From positions 3,488,001-3,552,000 of the forward strand of contig OZ242011.1 of the NCBI GenBank assembly GCA_965204755.1: a DNA stretch of 64,000 nt, written 5' to 3'. A model generated the notes under the pieces. That model was not told where the DNA came from. It saw only the letters and a list, made by a program, of their open reading frames with translations, and did no database searches. The position numbers and the translations under genes were made by a program. Source of the DNA: Candidatus Marinacidobacterium sp. Lineage in GTDB: Bacteria > Acidobacteriota > Vicinamibacteria > Marinacidobacterales > Marinacidobacteraceae. Position 1 is the first letter of the stretch. Each line of letters starts with the position of its first letter. Of the stretch, positions 1,392 to 9,128 are shown in pieces.

Positions 1392-2507
1392 TCAACTCGC
1401 GGCGCCCTCTTCCGCCGCCCCGGCGGGCGCGGCGAGGAGCGCCCGGAGCGCGTGGTCGGCCAGCACCAGCCGCGCCATCGCCTCCACGATGGGGACGGCG
1501 CGGGGGAGGACGCAGGGGTCGTGGCGGCCCTTGGCCGCGAGGGTGACCTCGCGGCCCCCCGAATCCACCGTCCGCTGCTCCCGGGCGATCGTCGAAGTCG
1601 GCTTGAAGGCCACCCGGAACCGGATCGGCATCCCGGTGGAGATGCCGCCCAGGACGCCGCCGGCGCGGTTCGTCTCCGAGACCACCCGGTCCCCTTCCAT
1701 CCTCAGCGGGTCGTTGTGCTCGCTCCCGAAGAGCGCCGTCCCGGCGAACCCCGAACCGATCTCGAAGCCCTTCGCGGCGTTGATCGCCAGCATCGCCCCG
1801 GCGAGGCCGCTCTCGAGTTTGTCGAACACCGGCTCGCCGAGCCCGGCGGGGACGCCGACCGCCACGCACTCGACGACGCCTCCCACGGAGTCCCCGGCGG
1901 CTTTCGCTTCGGTGATCAGCGCCTCCATCTTCGCCGCCGCCTCCGGGTCCGGGCAGCGGACCGCCGTCCGGTCCACGGCCTCGCGGGTGACTTCTTCCGC
2001 CGGGAGGGGGGCCGCTTCGATGTCCTTCACCCGCTGGACGAAGGCGGTCACCCGGATGCCGCGGCGCTCCCGGAGGAAGATTCCGGCCAGCGCGCCGGCG
2101 GCCACATGCGCGGCGGTGACCCGCGCCGAGGAGCGGCCGCCGCCCCGGTGGTCGCGGATCCCGTACTTGGCGGCGAAGGTGAAGTCGGCGTGGCCGGGCC
2201 GGTACACCGACCGGAGCGGGTCGTAGTCGGCGGGGCGGGCGTCCCGGTTCCGGACCAGCATCGCCACCGGGTGCCCGGTGGTCCGGCCTTCGTGGACGCC
2301 GGAGAGGATCTCCACCCGGTCCGGCTCCGAGCGGGGAGTGGTCAGCGCGCTCTGTCCGGGCCGCCGCCGGTCGAGTTCCGCCTGGATGCCCGCTTCGCCG
2401 ACGGGCAGGAGCTGCGGGCAGCCGTCCACCACAACCCCGATCGCCGGGCCGTGCGACTCCCCGAAGGCGGTGACCCGGAAGGCCTGGCCCAGCGCGCTAC
2501 CGGGCAT
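1392..2507 (-). CDS. aroC: Chorismate synthase
   Basis: [20 protein letters not shown] and RHDPCV signature motifs. Confidence 0.98.
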
Positions 2508-4647
2508 CGTCCGCCCTCTCCGCCGCCCCGGCCATCACCTCGAGCGGCGCCGGCCTTCCCGTCCAGCGGGTGAAGGCCGCCGCGCCCTGGAGGACGAGCA
2601 TCCGGAGGCCGGAGACTTCGCGTTTGCCCGCCGCGGCGGCGAGTTCGAGCAGCGGGGTGCGCCGGGGATGGAAGACCAGGTCGAAGACGACCTCGTGCGC
2701 GGCGACGACCTCGGCGGAGGCCGGCGACTTCCCTTCGGCGGGCCCGCCGGCCATGCCCACCGGCGTCGCGTTCACCAGCAGGTCGGCGGAGGCGCCGCGC
2801 AGCCGGTCGAGCGGGGCCCACCCGGCGCCGAACCGGGCGGCGCAGGCGGCGCCCCGCGCTTCGTCCCGCGCGAACACCGTGGCCTCGGCCCCGGAGCGGC
2901 GGAGGCCGTGGAGGACGGCGCGCGCGGATCCGCCGGCGCCGATCACGCTCGCCCGCTTCCCGGCGAGCGGCTCGCCGAGCGCTTCTTCGAGGGCCCGGGC
3001 GGCGCCGATCCAGTCGGTGTTCGCCCCGAGAAGTCCATCGTCCGTCGGGAGGATCGTATTCACCGCGCCGATCCGGGCCGCGTCCTCGTCGAGCGCGTCG
3101 AGCAGCGGGACCGCCGCCTCCTTGTGGGGAATCGTCAGGTTCAGGCCGGCGGCGCCGGCGAGGCGCGCCGCCGCGAGGAACGCCGCCAGGTCCTCCGGGG
3201 GGACCTCGAACGGCAGGTAGGCGGCCTCCATCCCGAGATGGCGGAACGCGGCCTCGTGCATCGCCGGGCTGAGGCTCTGCGCCACCGGGAAGCCGACGAC
3301 GCCGTGGACCGGCGCCGGGGAGGCGAGTTTCGCGCCCCACCGGCGGTGCCGGGCGCGGATGCGGGCGGAGTCCGACTGGCCGGGCGCGGTCTCCGGCCAC
3401 CCGGCCGGGGGTGAGTAGGTCGAAAAGCGGGCCCCGGCGGCGCGGGCGGTGACGCGCAGCGCCTCCCCGGCTTCGCCCATGGCGACGGCGACCAGCGGCG
3501 GGAGGCGGTCGTCCGCGCGCCGCTCCGCCGCGTGGGAGCGGATCCTCCGGTGGAGGGCGGCCGTCTCCGCGAAATCCCGGACGCGGACGGCGACCTTCAC
3601 CAGGTCGGGGCGCATGGCGGCGAGGCGGCTCGGCTGCGTCTCCGGGTCCTCCGGCGCTTCGTCGAACCAGTGCCGGGAGGCGATGAGGCGGACCTCGGGC
3701 CGGGCTTGGCGCGCCCGTTCGGAGATCCGGGGGGAGGCCCGCCGGTCCGCTTCCGCCTCGATGTCGAGCCAGCCGGCGCCGAGGCGGGCGGCCTCGACCA
3801 GCAGGCGGATCCGGGCCGCTTCGTCCCCGCGGAACGACCCGCCCTCTTCGCGCGGCCGCGCGGTGGCGATCAGCCGGTCGAGCGCCGCCGCGGGCAGGGC
3901 GCCGAGGACGGCGCGGACGGACTCCAAGTCGGGCCGGTCGGGCCGGTCGAGCGCGTCGAGCCGCCACTCCAGCAGGTCGTCCGGCCCGGCCTCCGCCCAT
4001 GCGGCGAGCAGCCCGGCCGCGGCCCGCTCCGGGGCGGGGGCGGCGACGGAGAGGGCGATGCCGGGGCCGAAGTGCGCGGCGCGGAGGGCGTCGGCGGCGA
4101 GCCGGGGGGCCGGTTCCTCCCCGGCGCCGGGTGCGGCGCTCCAGATGTCCCGGTCGGCGACGCTCCGGTAGAGCGGCGCCCGCCGTTCCAGGATGCGGGC
4201 GGCTTCGCCTGCCGGGTCGGCGTCCGCGGCGCCGGGGAGCAGCGGCGGACGGCGGGAGCGGTGCTTCGGGCGGGCGAGGCGGCTCTCCAGGACGACGAGC
4301 GGCGCGCGTACCCAGTACGCGGTTCCCAGGCGGCGGAGCGCCTCCCGGTTCTCCCGCCGCTCGACCACGCCGCCGCCGCAGTCCACCACCAGCCGCTCGC
4401 CGGCGATCGAGGCGAGGACGCGGCTCTCCTCGTCGCGGAACGCCTCCCAACCGCGCCGGGCCACGAACTCCGGGATCGGGCCGTGGGCCTCCTCGAACCG
4501 CTCGTCGGTGCTGACGCGCGTCCAGCCGGTGTCCTCGGCGAACTGGCGGGAAGCGCGGCTCTTGCCGGAGGCCCGCGCGCCGACCAGGACGATGTTGGGC
4601 CACCGGCCCGGGCGGATCGGCGGGACCCGGGGGTCGGCGGCGCTCAC
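2497..4647 (-). CDS. Trifunctional shikimate kinase / type I 3-dehydroquinate dehydratase / shikimate dehydrogenase (AroK-AroD-AroE fusion)
   Basis: N-terminal P-loop GARASGKS with FRDEE and DCGGG (kinase). Middle [36 protein letters not shown] (type I DHQase). C-terminal [46 protein letters not shown] (AroE). GTG at 4647 overlaps the aroA stop (GTGA). Confidence 0.92.
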
Positions 4648-6098
4648 GGGGCTTCGACCGGGCGGACGCGGACGCCGAGTCCGGCGACCTCGTCCCAGAA
4701 GGCCGGGAAGGACTTGGCCACGACTCCCGGCGAGAGCACCCGCACTCCTCCCGGGCGGCGGAGGCCGGCGAGGGCGAAGGCCATGGCGATCCGGTGGTCC
4801 CCGTCCGGGTCGAAGACCGGCGGGGCGCTCCGGTCGGTCGGCGGGTCGGACGGATGGATCGTCAGCGCGCCCCCGCCGAACTCCGTCCGGGCGCCCAGCG
4901 CGGCGAGCCCCCGGCGGAGCGCGGCGATCCGGTCGCTCTCCTTGTGGCGCAGGTGCTCCACCCCGTGGAGCCGGGTCGGCCCGGAGGCGAAGGCGGCGAC
5001 GACGGCGAGCGTCGGCGCGGAGTCGGGCATCCGGGCGCAGTCCGCCTCGATCCCCCGGAGCCCGGCGGCGGCGCCCTCCACCTCGACTTCGAAGCCGGCC
5101 TCCGGGCCGTCGGGGCCGTCCCGCTCCTCCACCCGGCAGCCCATCCGGCGCAGGGTCTCCGGGAACTCGCGCTCGCCGGCGCCCGGCGCCCCGTCGAGGC
5201 CGAGCGCCCGCACCCGGCCGGGGGCGAGGGCCGCCGCCGCGAACAGGTAGGAGGCGCTCGCCCAGTCGCCGGACACCCGGCTCGCGCCGGGCCGGAAGCG
5301 GGTCCCGGCGGGGACGAAGAGGCGGCGCCCGCCATGCGGACCGCCGCGCCGTTCGACCGTCGCGCCGCACCGCGCCATGACCGAGAGGGTCAGGTCGAGG
5401 TAGGACGCGGAGACCGGCTCGCTCCCGAGTTCGATTTCCAGGGCCCCCAGCGCGCGCCCGGCGGCGATGAGCAGGGCGCTCGCGAACTGGCTGGTCTCGT
5501 GGGTCGGGAGATGCGCGCGTCCGCCCCGGAGCCCGCCGCCGGGTTCCCCGGACCGGACGGTGAGCGGGACGCTGCCGCCGCCCTCGGCGCGGACGACCGC
5601 GCCCAGCGAGACCAGGGCGCGGACGAGCCCCCCGAGCGGGCGTTCGGGGAGCCGCCCCCGTCCGACGATCCGCACCGGGGTCGGGGAAGTGGCCGCGGCG
5701 GCGGTGAGGAACCGGAGGAGCGTTCCCGATTCGCCGACATCGGCGAGGGCGGGTTCGGGGAGGGCGGGTTCGGGGAGGGCGGGTTCGGCGAGGGCGGGCG
5801 CGGCGGCTTCCGGGGCCGCGCGTTCGGGGGCGGGAAGTCCGCGGACGCGGATCCCGCCGTCCGATTCGGTCGTCTCCGCGCCGAGCGCGCGGACGGCGGC
5901 GACGGCCGCGCGGATGTCCTCGCCCTCCGGCGCTCCGAGGATCCGCCGCTCGCCGTCGGTGAGCGCGGCGATCGCGAGCAGGCGGTTCGCCTCGTACTTG
6001 CTGCCGGGGGGCCGGACGACGGCGGAGACCGGACGCCGGGGCGGGGAGACCTCCACGGCTCCGGGGAAGGCCCGGGCCGGCCGGGAGGAGACGGTCAC
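4644..6098 (-). CDS. aroA: 3-phosphoshikimate 1-carboxyvinyltransferase (EPSP synthase)
   Basis: PGSK..NR, GESGTLLRF, TSQFASALL, RHKESDRI, DHRIAM and KSFPAFW motifs. Confidence 0.97.
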   Translation of the reverse strand: MTVSSRPARAFPGAVEVSPPRRPVSAVVRPPGSKYEANRLLAIAALTDGERRILGAPEGEDIRAAVAAVRALGAETTESDGGIRVRGLPAPERAAPEAAAPALAEPALPEPALPEPALADVGESGTLLRFLTAAAATSPTPVRIVGRGRLPERPLGGLVRALVSLGAVVRAEGGGSVPLTVRSGEPGGGLRGGRAHLPTHETSQFASALLIAAGRALGALEIELGSEPVSASYLDLTLSVMARCGATVERRGGPHGGRRLFVPAGTRFRPGASRVSGDWASASYLFAAAALAPGRVRALGLDGAPGAGEREFPETLRRMGCRVEERDGPDGPEAGFEVEVEGAAAGLRGIEADCARMPDSAPTLAVVAAFASGPTRLHGVEHLRHKESDRIAALRRGLAALGARTEFGGGALTIHPSDPPTDRSAPPVFDPDGDHRIAMAFALAGLRRPGGVRVLSPGVVAKSFPAFWDEVAGLGVRVRPVEAP

Positions 6099-6811
6099 CG
6101 CCGGGTCCCCCGGAGGGTTCGCGGGCGTTCGATCCCGAGCCGGGCGCCCGCTCCGGGCCGCGCGGGTCGAGCCGAATTGTGTATAGCTCGATCCGGCGCG
6201 GACGAATTGTGTATAGGTGAATTGTGTATAGGTGCGCTGAATTGTGTATAGCTGCGCCGAATTGTGTATAGCTGGGCCTCCTGCGCCCGATGGGGGTCGA
6301 TCCGACGCCTCCGGGAGGCGGGATCGGGCGCGTACGGGGGCGGGGAACCGGGCCGCGGGGCGTCGTACGGGCGTCCCGGGGCGCGTACGGCAGGGTTACG
6401 GGGCGCGGAAGGGCGCGAAGCCGGATCGCGCGGCGCCGGGCCGCGCGGAGCGGAATTGTGTATAGGCGGCCCGTCCGGGGCCGGAATTGTGTATAGGTGA
6501 GCCGCCCGGAAGCGGAATTGTGTATAGGTGAGCCGCCCGGAAGCGGAATTGTGTATAGCTGAGCCGGACGGAGCGGAATTGTGTATAGCTGAGCCGGACG
6601 GAGGGGAATTGTGTATAGCTGGGCCGAACGGGGCGGAATTGTGTATAGGTGGGCCGGACGGAGGGGAATTGTGTATAGGTGAGCCGGACGGAGCGGAATT
6701 GTGTATAGCTGAGCGGCGCGCAGCGGAATCGCGTACGGCCGGCGCGGAGAGCGGGGTCGCTCGCGGCGGGGTTCGGGGCGGGGGCGGCGCCGGGGCGCTT
6801 CGGCCGCTCAC
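6095..6811 (-). CDS. Putative low-complexity linker ORF (238 aa) spanning the repeat array; may not encode a functional protein
   Basis: Its GTG (6811) overlaps the aroB TGA, and its TGA (6095-6097) overlaps the aroA GTG. The frame is open throughout (3' part of track ORF 6095..7957). The repeat is read in all three frames (IHNS, YTQF, LYTI). Confidence 0.4.
   Translation of the reverse strand: MSGRSAPAPPPPRTPPRATPLSAPAVRDSAARRSAIHNSAPSGSPIHNSPPSGPPIHNSAPFGPAIHNSPPSGSAIHNSAPSGSAIHNSASGRLTYTQFRFRAAHLYTIPAPDGPPIHNSAPRGPAPRDPASRPSAPRNPAVRAPGRPYDAPRPGSPPPYAPDPASRRRRIDPHRAQEAQLYTIRRSYTQFSAPIHNSPIHNSSAPDRAIHNSARPARPGAGARLGIERPRTLRGTRR
6174..6738. repeat. Array of 14 exact direct copies of GAATTGTGTATAG in two blocks, plus degenerate copies
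   Basis: Copies start at 6174, 6204, 6219, 6239, 6259 and 6453, 6484, 6515, 6546, 6576, 6606, 6636, 6666, 6696. A degenerate GAATCGCGTACGG is in phase at 6726. Confidence 0.97.
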
Positions 6812-8016
6812 AGCCCGATCTCCTCCAGGCCGGCGGACGCGGCGGACTCCGGCATCGGGTGGGAGTAGCGCGTCTCCCCGGACTCGCCCCGGCGGCGGAC
6901 CCGGCCGATGTCTTCCAGCGTCACGAAGCGGGCTTCGCCGCCGACGGTCTTCTTGTCGCTGCCCATCGCCCGGAGGACCGCCTCCCGCGCCAGGTCGGAC
7001 GGGGCGCGCCGCGGGAGCCCGAAAGCGCCGAGCAGCGCCGTGAGCCGGGACTCCGCCTCTTCGCCGAGGCGGCCCGCCGCCCGCGCCATCCGGGACTCCG
7101 CGACCATCCCGATCGCCACCGCCGCCCCGTGCGCGAGGCGGTAGCCGCTCGCGCTCTCCAGCCCGTGGCCCACGGTGTGGCCGAAGTTCAGCACCTGGCG
7201 GAGCCCGGCCTCCCGCTCGTCGCGCGCGACCACCGACGCCTTCAGCCGGACGCTCAGGGCGATCGTCCGGGCCACCGCCTCCGGGTCCCGGGCCGCGACC
7301 GCCTCCCGCGCCTCTTCGAGGAACGAGAACGCGGAGGCGTCCAGCGTCGCCGCGATCTTCACCGCCTCGGCCAACCCGTTCCGGAACTCCGCCGCCGGGA
7401 GCGTGGCGAGGAACCGGGTGTCCGCGAGCACCGCCGCCGGGGGGTGGACCGCGCCGACGAGGTTCTTCCCCCGCGCCGTGTTCAGCCCGGTCTTGCCGCC
7501 GACGGAGGCGTCCACCGCGGCGAGCAGGGTCGTCGGGACCGCGACGAACGGCACGCCGCGCAGGTAGGTCGCCGCCGCGAACCCGGCGAGGTCGGTGGTC
7601 ACCCCGCCGCCGAAGGCGACGACCACGGTGTCCCGCCCGAACCGCCGGGCGAGGAACTCGTCCTCGATCCGCTCCTTCTCGGCCCGCGTCTTGTTCCCCT
7701 CCCCGGGGGCGAGCCGGAGCACCGGCGCTCCCGCCGGCAGCGCCCCGGCGAGCGTCCGCCCGTGGAGGCGCTCCGCCTCGGCGTCCGCCACCGCGGCGAC
7801 CGCCCGCCCCGGGAACCGTTCGGCCAGGAGCCGGGGCAGGGCATCGAGGGCGCCCTCGCCCACCAGCACCCGGTAGTCCGCCCGGCGGCCGGGAACCGCC
7901 ACCGGGACTTCGGCCACCCGCCGGGCCGCCCCTCCCCCCGACCATCCCCCCGACCATCCTCCCGACCCCGGAGCGGCGGCCGCCTTCCCGCCCGCCGTCG
8001 GGCCGGCGCCCGTCAC
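6808..8016 (-). CDS. aroB: 3-dehydroquinate synthase
   Basis: GEGNKT, FGGGVTTDLAGFAAATYLRG, PTTLLAAVDASVGGKTG, LNFGHTVGHGLE and HGAAVAIGM motifs. Start uncertain (GTG 8016 or 7917). Confidence 0.96.
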   Translation of the reverse strand: MTGAGPTAGGKAAAAPGSGGWSGGWSGGGAARRVAEVPVAVPGRRADYRVLVGEGALDALPRLLAERFPGRAVAAVADAEAERLHGRTLAGALPAGAPVLRLAPGEGNKTRAEKERIEDEFLARRFGRDTVVVAFGGGVTTDLAGFAAATYLRGVPFVAVPTTLLAAVDASVGGKTGLNTARGKNLVGAVHPPAAVLADTRFLATLPAAEFRNGLAEAVKIAATLDASAFSFLEEAREAVAARDPEAVARTIALSVRLKASVVARDEREAGLRQVLNFGHTVGHGLESASGYRLAHGAAVAIGMVAESRMARAAGRLGEEAESRLTALLGAFGLPRRAPSDLAREAVLRAMGSDKKTVGGEARFVTLEDIGRVRRRGESGETRYSHPMPESAASAGLEEIGL

Positions 8017-8042
8017 CCCCCGAAGCCGGCCGCGCCGAACGG

Positions 8043-9128
8043 TCAGGCCGCCGGTCGGCCCTCCGCCGAAGCGCCGTCCCCCGCCGGCAGCAACCGCCGG
8101 CCGAGCGCGGCCCCCAGCGACCGCAACTCGTCCAGCAGCACCGCGAACTGGTCCGGGTAGAGCGACTGGTCGCCGTCGCTGAGCGCCGCCGCCGGGTCGG
8201 GGTGCACCTCGACCAGCAGCCCGTCGGCGCCGGCGGCGAGCGCGGCCCGCGAGAGCGCCGGCACCAGCGTCTTGTTCCCGGCGCTGTGGCTCGGGTCGGC
8301 GATGACCGGCAGGTGGGTCTCCTGCTTCAGCACCGCGATCGCCCCGACATCGAGCGTGTTCCGGTACGCCGTCTCGAACGACCGGATCCCCCGCTCGCAG
8401 AGGATCACATTCGGGTTCCCCTGGAGGATGTACTCGGCGGCGAGCAGGAACTCCCGGATGGTGTTCGACATCCCGCGCTTCAGGATCACCGGCGTCTCCA
8501 CCCGCGCGAACTCCTTGAGCAGGTCGAAGTTCTGCATGTTCCGGGCGCCGATCCTCAGCACATCCACGAGGCCCGAAGCCGGGGCCACATCGCGCACATC
8601 CATGATCTCGGTCTCGACCAGGACGCCGGTCCCTTCCCGGATGCGGGCCAGGATCTCGAGACCCTCCCGCCCGAGCCCCTGGAAGGAATACGGCGAAGTG
8701 CGGGGCTTGTAGGCGGAGGCGCGCATGACTTCGAGCCCCAGCCGCCGGATCATCCGGGCGGACTCGAAGCCCTGCTCCTCGCTCTCGAGCGCGCAGGGCC
8801 CGCCGAAGACCACGAAGTCGTCGCTGCCGAGCGCCTGCCCGCCGATCGGGATCCGGGTGCTCGACTTCCGGTGGGTCTTGTTCGCGAGGCGGTAGGGCTT
8901 CGCCAGCCCGTACACCTGCTCGACGCCCGGCAGCGTGCGCCAGGCGGCTTCCGTCTCCTGCGAGAGGTCGCCGAGCACATGGATCTGCGTCCGCACCTGC
9001 CCCCGGTGGATCGCCCGGTCGAGCGCCTTGTCCTCGATGTGCCGGACCAGGTTCTCGATGTCCCCGGCCTCCGCCCACGGGTGGAGGATGAGCACCATGG
9101 TGGCGGGCTCGCGGGTCTTGTCGCTCAT
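8043..9128 (-). CDS. aroF: DAHP synthase, class I-beta, with N-terminal regulatory domain
   Basis: GPCALES, YKPRTSPYSFQGLG, IGARNMQNF, LCERGIR and DPSH motifs. Confidence 0.96.
   Translation of the reverse strand: MSDKTREPATMVLILHPWAEAGDIENLVRHIEDKALDRAIHRGQVRTQIHVLGDLSQETEAAWRTLPGVEQVYGLAKPYRLANKTHRKSSTRIPIGGQALGSDDFVVFGGPCALESEEQGFESARMIRRLGLEVMRASAYKPRTSPYSFQGLGREGLEILARIREGTGVLVETEIMDVRDVAPASGLVDVLRIGARNMQNFDLLKEFARVETPVILKRGMSNTIREFLLAAEYILQGNPNVILCERGIRSFETAYRNTLDVGAIAVLKQETHLPVIADPSHSAGNKTLVPALSRAALAAGADGLLVEVHPDPAAALSDGDQSLYPDQFAVLLDELRSLGAALGRRLLPAGDGASAEGRPAA

Follow-up and report, generated by a model that had tools for sequence, protein, structure and literature searches.

Nine two-block arrays of an invariant direct repeat in a Candidatus Marinacidobacterium genome: candidate docking sites for a DNA-binding protein

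The genome of Candidatus Marinacidobacterium sp. (assembly GCA_965204755.1, contig OZ242011.1) carries, in the gap between aroB and aroA, 14 identical copies of the AT-rich 13-mer GAATTGTGTATAG, grouped into two blocks. The gap lies within the stretch of 64,000 nucleotides analyzed here (positions 3,488,001 to 3,552,000 of the contig; referred to below as the window). A preliminary description had regarded the array as a phased cluster of DnaA-box-like motifs, unexpectedly placed inside an amino-acid operon and suggestive of a loading platform for a multimeric protein. In this study, the motif was followed through the whole genome, through 40 related genomes and through species-level, viral and metagenome collections. 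The aroB–aroA array proved to be one of nine arrays of the same design, and the reading that we favor, tentatively and at somewhat less than an even chance, is that they form a dispersed family, specific to this lineage, of iteron-like arrays whose two blocks serve as docking sites for a sequence-specific DNA-binding protein. If they are true docking platforms, about 100 perfect sites have resisted the strong GC pressure of a genome with 72% GC, and the arrays would provide, in a sponge-associated lineage that has not been cultured, a handle for finding a new nucleoid, partition or titration protein. The array tells us nothing about the regulation of the shikimate pathway, and its annotation as a DnaA site is unwarranted.

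The aroB–aroA array and its genome-wide family

A motif search of the whole window located GAATTGTGTATAG 14 times, always exact and always on the forward strand, and no further site appeared when up to three mismatches were permitted. The chance expectation was 0.76, and 14 sites were reached in none of 100 shuffles. Tandem Repeats Finder recovered the same arrays. The two blocks hold five and nine copies and lie about 190 nt apart, with start-to-start steps of 30, 15, 20 and 20 nt in the first block, 194 nt between the blocks, and 31, 31, 31, 30, 30, 30, 30 and 30 nt in the second (Table 1). Both the number of identical, singly oriented copies and the spacings given in the preliminary description were thus reproduced exactly. 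Its suggestion of decayed copies stood only in part: the degenerate copy GAATCGCGTACGG keeps the phase of the array, as it starts at 6726, 30 nt past the last exact copy, and the word CGTACGG occurs three times in the center, but over all nine arrays matches with four mismatches number three, against 4.8 expected from shuffled motifs, and such copies are therefore not above chance.

The locus is covered by public contigs from four runs belonging to four studies. One contig (X1) corresponds to positions 5400–6511 with zero differences, while a 5090-nt contig from another study (X6) corresponds, with 22 differences, to 5400–6589 and takes in aroA, block 1, the center and the initial units of block 2. 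Given its presence in contigs of four studies, the array is not an assembly artefact.

The genome (G000) is a single contig (C1) of 3.98 Mb with a GC content of 71.7% and a completeness of 89%, in which the window occupies G000:C1:3488001-3552000. It contains 104 copies of GAATTGTGTATAG at up to one mismatch, of which 100 are exact and four carry one mismatch; the reversed control pattern gave no matches in the same genome. All 104 copies are confined to nine clusters, designated A1–A9, and the design is shared by all nine: a block of 4–6 copies, a GC-rich center of 140–222 nt and a block of 4–9 copies, all on one strand. The centers of the nine arrays can be aligned only loosely, over their left halves, and this loose homology implies that whole units were copied and not locally built. 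The contexts are unrelated, including genes for an amidohydrolase and a 3-hydroxyacyl-CoA dehydrogenase, a methyltransferase, a tRNA-proximal site, SNF2/ResIII helicases, a Uma2 nuclease and an HtrA-like protease, hisF, and aroB and aroA. No family A array overlaps a called gene, two of the nine sit within operons (aro and his), and the orientation relative to the flanking genes is mixed, A9 being opposite to its operon and A8 in the same direction. The aroB–aroA array is one member of a dispersed family and its operon context is incidental; the earlier emphasis on a position inside an amino-acid operon was misleading, given that nine unrelated intergenic contexts hold the same array family.

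Conservation of cores and spacers, relatives and sister families

A core-aligned logo of the 104 copies shows 13 positions with little or no variation, followed by C or G at position 14, T at position 15 in 95 of the 104 copies, and G or C at position 16. Beyond this S-T-S extension (S, C or G) the flanking positions follow the genome composition, and the conserved site is 15–16 bp long, namely GAATTGTGTATAG plus the constrained S-T-S. Three of the four one-mismatch copies lie at array edges. When each unit was compared with the consensus of its own block, the cores differed at two of 559 positions, positions 14–16 at 19 of 129 and the spacers at 65 of 266; had the cores varied at the rate of the spacers, 137 differences would be expected in them. 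Among the 86 spacings, 43 are 20 nt, 13 are 21 nt, six are 22 nt, 14 are 30 or 31 nt and two, near one and a half turns, are 15 or 16 nt, so that 70 of 86 fall at 20/21 or 30/31 nt. Distinct spacers were found in 40 of the 56 units of 20/21 nt. The blocks with a three-turn (30/31) period, in A5 and A9, have spacers that are unrelated to each other, and the recurrence of the same period with unrelated spacers hints at a helical-phase constraint and not at inheritance alone. Furthermore, in the contigs from other studies all of the listed differences within 6174–6720 (14 substitutions and eight indels) fall outside the 13-mers. The invariant core with drifting, phased spacers that had been described is confirmed.

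The 40 relatives comprise genomes of the same genus, family and order; the tallies include G033, which is flagged as unpublished, whereas the other results do not. None of the 40 contains the motif array, with at most two scattered one-mismatch matches per genome. The same-genus genome G001, also a single contig, has zero matches to GAATTGTGTATAG; its AroA is 67% identical, and its aroB–aroA gap is 275 bp long and free of repeats. In the species-level genome collection, one other place has two adjacent exact 13-mers, in a metagenome-assembled genome of the Chloroflexales. The viral collection gave no match to the motif array, and the metagenome collection gave five, all unrelated: three represent the Chloroflexales oriC-like region and two are AT-rich, satellite-like arrays. 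This Chloroflexales region (L026, L074, L075 and L078; four times in all) is oriC-like, with a GC content of 47% and many TGTGGATAA boxes, and contains the 13-mer twice, 22 bp apart. A full-text literature search for the 12-mer returned only an unrelated paper on human methylation.

A k-mer census of G000 revealed further two-block arrays with other cores, namely family B (AAAGACACAGGCT, five loci) and family C (ACTTGGACCCC, one locus). The periods of family B are irregular (13 and 18–23), and its center ends, directly before block 2, in a conserved AT-rich stretch resembling an IHF site; this stretch equals the IHF consensus, as given in PMC5742627, exactly in one of five loci in G000 and in two of four in G001. 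Family B matches number 56 in G000 and 21 in G001, while each of the other 39 relatives has 0–6, no more than the reversed control. The four loci of G001 show the core variants GGG, ATGC and CTGC. One family B locus is syntenic between G000 and G001, with flanks that are 88% identical over 357 amino acids and 57% over 263 amino acids, and the remaining loci show no synteny with G001 (one of five syntenic). At least one array has thus persisted since the two genomes split. At this syntenic pair the prevailing core variant is GGCT in G000 and mostly GGG in G001, which indicates that the arrays, although they persist, undergo concerted evolution inside each genome.

Words resembling GGATCGAGCCCCTTCG occur singly in the centers and flanks of families A and B. 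Large tandem arrays of such words are located at G000:C1:339974-341756, 1840214-1840521, 2162015-2163110 and 2781655-2782307, one of which has 116 copies with a 15-nt period.

Docking arrays and competing explanations

If the arrays are docking sites, each 15–16 bp site would be occupied by a sequence-specific DNA-binding protein, as a single protomer or a single dimer. The spacing of two or three turns would align neighboring sites along the same helical face and would allow cooperative, filament-like loading of each block, and two loaded blocks about 150–235 bp apart would form a higher-order nucleoprotein landmark. The unit of block, center and block, some 400–550 bp in length, has been copied to nine intergenic places, with the aroB–aroA gap as one tolerated landing site. 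The role of such landmarks in the cell may be the organization of the chromosome or the titration of a regulator. The multimeric protein platform of the preliminary description is to this extent compatible with the invariant cores and the drifting, phased spacers, but DnaA as that protein is unsupported and no cognate gene was found.

Several points weigh against docking arrays. No cognate binding protein turned up, and no gene family recurs among the 47 + 9 + 19 open reading frames flanking the family A, family B and G001 loci, the calls of which are crude and often too long. The comparison of cores with spacers is partly circular, as the units were located through their cores; room for a missed unit exists in just one of the 86 spacings (43 nt), which limits this circularity. 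The pattern between strains must be read together with 17 further differences in the 2.2-kb stretch beyond those listed and with a contig depth that is eightfold higher at 6214–6287, and the preponderance of differences in spacers could partly reflect short contigs that derive from the other eight arrays but were aligned to this one. A constant period can arise by duplication alone, and the lack of phasing in family B shows that arrays of this class need not be helically phased. The nine arrays are not spaced with significant regularity (P = 0.07), and their orientation relative to the likely origin (six against, three with) follows no replichore rule. In addition, the absence of family A from a genome of the same genus means that any role is dispensable or recent.

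A wider version of the docking proposal is improbable. It envisages a previously undescribed, genus-wide class of chromosomal two-block iterons that would comprise families A–C here together with the B-like arrays of G001, each family with a dedicated protein, in which about 15 landmarks would organize or segregate the chromosome or serve as a regulator sink; for family A the protein might be DnaA, in a symbiont with eroded oriC boxes.

A selfish or neutral origin of the arrays is unlikely but has to be taken seriously. Under this explanation they are dispersed repeats of the minisatellite or mosaic-element kind, like MIRU, BOX, BIME and NIME, which have no function for the host and owe their spread to recombination or to a recombinase or transposase specific to the element, and their cores are constant only because the spreading machinery recognizes them. 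Such repeats would be expected to show what is seen here: insertion at nine unrelated intergenic sites, including two operons, absence from 40 relatives, which implies a recent gain, and turnover, as implied by the single syntenic locus among five of family B. The company of the arrays is also of this kind. Six of the seven copies of a short element, X, abut arrays (A1, A2, A3, A6, A7 and one family B locus); in each of the six, it is the same end that faces the array. A variant of its word GCCCCGCTTTCGTGGACGGG with two mismatches occurs 43 times in a genome of the same order, where the one copy examined is situated immediately past the 3' end of a transposase gene of the IS3 type (rve/HTH_21); judged by these resemblances, element X looks like an IS3-family terminal repeat. 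A second element, Y, abuts arrays A1, A7 and A8 at three of its five loci and resembles an insertion-sequence end with two binding sites. The arrays therefore sit in BIME-like mosaics with insertion-sequence remnants. BIMEs are insertion targets of the IS3-family element IS1397, which the IS3-family end beside the present arrays recalls.

Against a selfish repeat, however, there is no autonomous copy: the 104 sites are confined to nine short arrays, and between their blocks there is no gene. Neither a Y1 (RAYT) transposase (PF01797) nor a homologue of the X-linked IS3 transposase was found in G000, and the arrays yielded no terminal inverted repeats or defined ends. Had the family become inactive, 100 of 104 cores would not have stayed perfect alongside spacers that differ at 24% of positions. 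The arrays resemble REP/BIME, NIME, BOX and MIRU elements in being short, lineage-specific intergenic repeats that also occur within operons and form mosaics with other repeats. They differ from the REP/BIME class, to which they do not belong, in consisting of direct repeats only, without palindromes, hairpins, an excess of folding or a RAYT, and from dispersed repeat families in general in their units of 20–31 bp, the perfect invariance of their AT-rich core within a genome of 72% GC and their fixed two-block layout. Nor are they CRISPR arrays, which have repeats of 23–50 nt and unique spacers of similar length, whereas the repeats here are 13–16 nt and the spacers are related and 2–18 nt long. 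A separate CRISPR-like array, with seven 37-nt repeats and spacers of about 35 nt, is present at G000:C1:3176300-3177100.

That the arrays are DnaA-box arrays, which would absorb or recycle the replication initiator at dispersed sites in the manner of datA, DARS or DnaA-box clusters, is decidedly improbable. As had been noted, the reverse strand reads CTATACACA, one mismatch from the DnaA box TTATnCACA (consensus confirmed in PMC5742627). In all 102 intact 9-mers the mismatch is at position 1 and TnCACA, the major-groove part of the consensus, which is read by the recognition helix according to the same paper, is intact. The only other genome with twin adjacent 13-mers has them within an oriC-like cluster of TGTGGATAA boxes, and dispersed DnaA-box clusters that restrain initiation are described for Bacillus subtilis in PMC3245932. 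The likely origin of the genome itself supplies a further argument. The dnaA gene lies at 1.824 Mb in the usual row rpmH-dnaA-dnaN-gyrB-gyrA, and the gene-strand bias fits an origin near the dnaA–dnaN spacer and a terminus near 3.75–3.9 Mb, the GC skew being noisy. The spacer shares the AT-rich element AATTCCACTATAATT with G001; its boxes of the TTTTCC type are TGTGGAAAA and GGTGGAAAA in G001 and two CGGAAAAC in G000, where the boxes appear, from their sequence, to have eroded to the TTTTCCGCG and TTTTCCGGC types. With oriC boxes that look eroded, 104 better boxes would be a strong sink.

However, the invariance extends four bases 3' and two to three bases 5' of the 9-mer, which contacts of DnaA domain IV do not explain, and position 1 is C in every copy. 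The array motif occurs neither at the likely oriC nor anywhere else in G000 outside the arrays, with 102 of 102 NTATACACA 9-mers inside them; this comparison with the genome and its origin, which had been suggested as a check, thus speaks against DnaA. Boxes at the origin of this lineage are of another kind, the equivalent spacer of a same-family genome having TTTTCCACA boxes about 11 bp apart and not a 20-bp period. The sister families B and C share the architecture with cores that are not DnaA boxes, and G001, with an identical DnaA recognition helix (RRHHSTVAHA), has no such arrays. The IHF consensus WATCAANNNNTTR is present in none of the nine family A arrays, although datA and DARS2 require an IHF site and known clusters consist of a few irregular boxes of the oriC type (PMC5742627). 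The arrays are like datA, DARS and the B. subtilis clusters in being dispersed, non-coding groups of initiator-box-like words one mismatch from TTATnCACA; they are unlike them in having 9–14 identical phased sites per locus, conservation that continues past the box, no IHF site and a word that differs from the boxes of their own oriC, so that they are not of the same box type. The specific attribution to DnaA is accordingly not supported, in view of the fixed bases beyond the 9-mer, the TTTTCC-type oriC boxes, the sister cores and the array-free G001.

Canonical boxes in G000 amount to one TTATCCACA and six TTWTNCACA, and no canonical DnaA-box cluster was found anywhere in the genome. Two AT-rich candidates for such a cluster were rejected: that at 3.4076 Mb proved to be a promoter region and that at 2.5585 Mb an operator-like array of GTTGACAAC. 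The latter (G000:C1:2558518-2558611) consists of six GTTGACAAC at a spacing of about 15 nt; the gap that contains them is locally AT-rich and immediately precedes a predicted ATPase gene, and the array looks operator-type.

Plasmid iterons are direct repeats bound by Rep initiators, and the arrays could be chromosomal sets of plasmid or phage iterons or centromeres, left over as relics or serving as decoys to titrate an invader's initiator or partition protein; this is very unlikely. The likeness to iterons lies in asymmetric, directly oriented sites (15–16 bp here, about 15–22 bp in iterons) that are spaced about two turns apart and combine a conserved core with a short variable spacer; here, 56 of the 86 spacings are 20/21 bp and 14 are 30/31 bp. 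Iteron arrays can also be split into two sets. However, the arrays have nine chromosomal copies instead of one replicon, no AT-rich unwinding element adjoins family A, no rep or par gene adjoins any of the nine loci and no Rep_3 initiator was found in G000 (89% complete). Nine copies dispersed among housekeeping genes are unlike the trace of an integrated replicon, the viral collection has no matches and the metagenome collection no related one. The two repeat sets around an unbound center also correspond, in all nine arrays, to the layout of the R1 centromere parC, bound by ParR, in which, according to PMC2241845, five and five iterons of 11 bp surround a 39 bp center with the par promoter, ahead of parM-parR, and each set is loaded cooperatively while the center is left unbound by protein. 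The present arrays differ from it in their 15–16 bp sites, 20–31 bp period and 140–222 nt center, and in that no promoter was found and no par genes are nearby. A search of G000 for ParM (StbA) was uninformative, as its control matched nowhere. The arrays belong neither to the iterons nor to the parC-type centromeres, because no cognate genes are present.

The least likely explanation is an RNA-level element, with transcribed arrays whose repeated word would function in the RNA, for instance as a protein sponge or processing signal: the conserved AT-rich stretch upstream of block 2 in family B could be a promoter, but the orientation relative to flanking genes is mixed, Rfam has no match in the window at 4000–9000 (E up to 1), at the eight other family A loci or at the B and C loci, block 2 folds on both strands with energies like those of shuffles (z of -0.55 and +1.03), and no sigma-70-like promoter or terminator was found in 5900–7000. 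Among the listed runs that contain the stretch, none is recorded as RNA. The idea of an NrdR box, suggested by ATTGTGT within the motif, was dropped, as the sole NrdR-like box in the genome is at 3.79 Mb and unrelated to the arrays.

Gene context and further observations

By the Pfam placement of its genes, the aroB–aroA gap is 709 bp long and the array occupies most of it (Table 1). The row of genes on the minus strand is DAHP synthase, aroB, the array, aroA, an aroK/aroD/aroE fusion and aroC. The fusion is a 714-residue frame at window positions 2497–4641 (minus strand) that joins shikimate kinase, type I dehydroquinase and shikimate dehydrogenase within the aro operon.

Table 1. Coordinates of the array components, array families, associated elements and likely origin. 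Positions without a prefix are those of the window; G000:C1 denotes the genome contig.
Feature	Position	Strand	Description
Block 1	6174..6271	+	Five exact GAATTGTGTATAG; starts 6174, 6204, 6219, 6239, 6259
Center	6272..6452	+	181 nt, 81% GC; CGTACGG three times
Block 2	6453..6708	+	Nine exact GAATTGTGTATAG, 30/31-bp period, spacers related but differing; starts 6453, 6484, 6515, 6546, 6576, 6606, 6636, 6666, 6696
Degenerate copy GAATCGCGTACGG	6726..6738	+	Array edge; four mismatches, every change AT to GC
aroA (EPSP synthase)	4644..6098	-	PF00275, E 1.5e-72; downstream of the array by transcription
aroB (3-dehydroquinate synthase)	6808..8040	-	PF01761 and PF24621, E ~4e-41; upstream of the array by transcription
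Family A arrays (A1–A9)	0.358, 0.756, 1.208, 1.660, 2.045, 2.895, 2.971, 3.119, 3.494 Mb		Core GAATTGTGTATAG; the last (A9) is the aroB–aroA array
Family B	G000:C1 ~245.5k, 587.9k, 1046.7k, 2291.7k, 3356.8k		Core AAAGACACAGGCT; five loci
Family C	G000:C1:1198486-1198753		Core ACTTGGACCCC; one locus, 12–13-nt period, center of ~190 nt
Element X	G000:C1:358270, 755722, 1207898, 2895836, 2970739, 245998, 422250		40–70 nt; word GCCCCGCTTTCGTGGACGGG
Element Y	G000:C1:358315, 585880, 1575814, 2970680, 3119676		Two direct TGCGTAAAAGTYGGTGTC, ending ...CTCGACAG
Likely oriC	G000:C1:1824704-1825242		dnaA–dnaN spacer, ~540 bp; conserved with G001

The other half of the window is dominated by a single open frame of 10,245 residues on the plus strand (30877–61614). 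Calx-beta stretches numbered 19 and 17 in the two parts scanned, and the frame probably encodes a giant adhesin-like protein, to judge from its predicted domains. This frame explains the strong AT and GC skew in that half of the window. Elsewhere, dozens of long homopolymer C/G tracts are found at many sites of G000:C1 (for example, 538801-540001 and 958601-960001), with up to 39 overlapping CCCCCCCCC words per 600-nt span.

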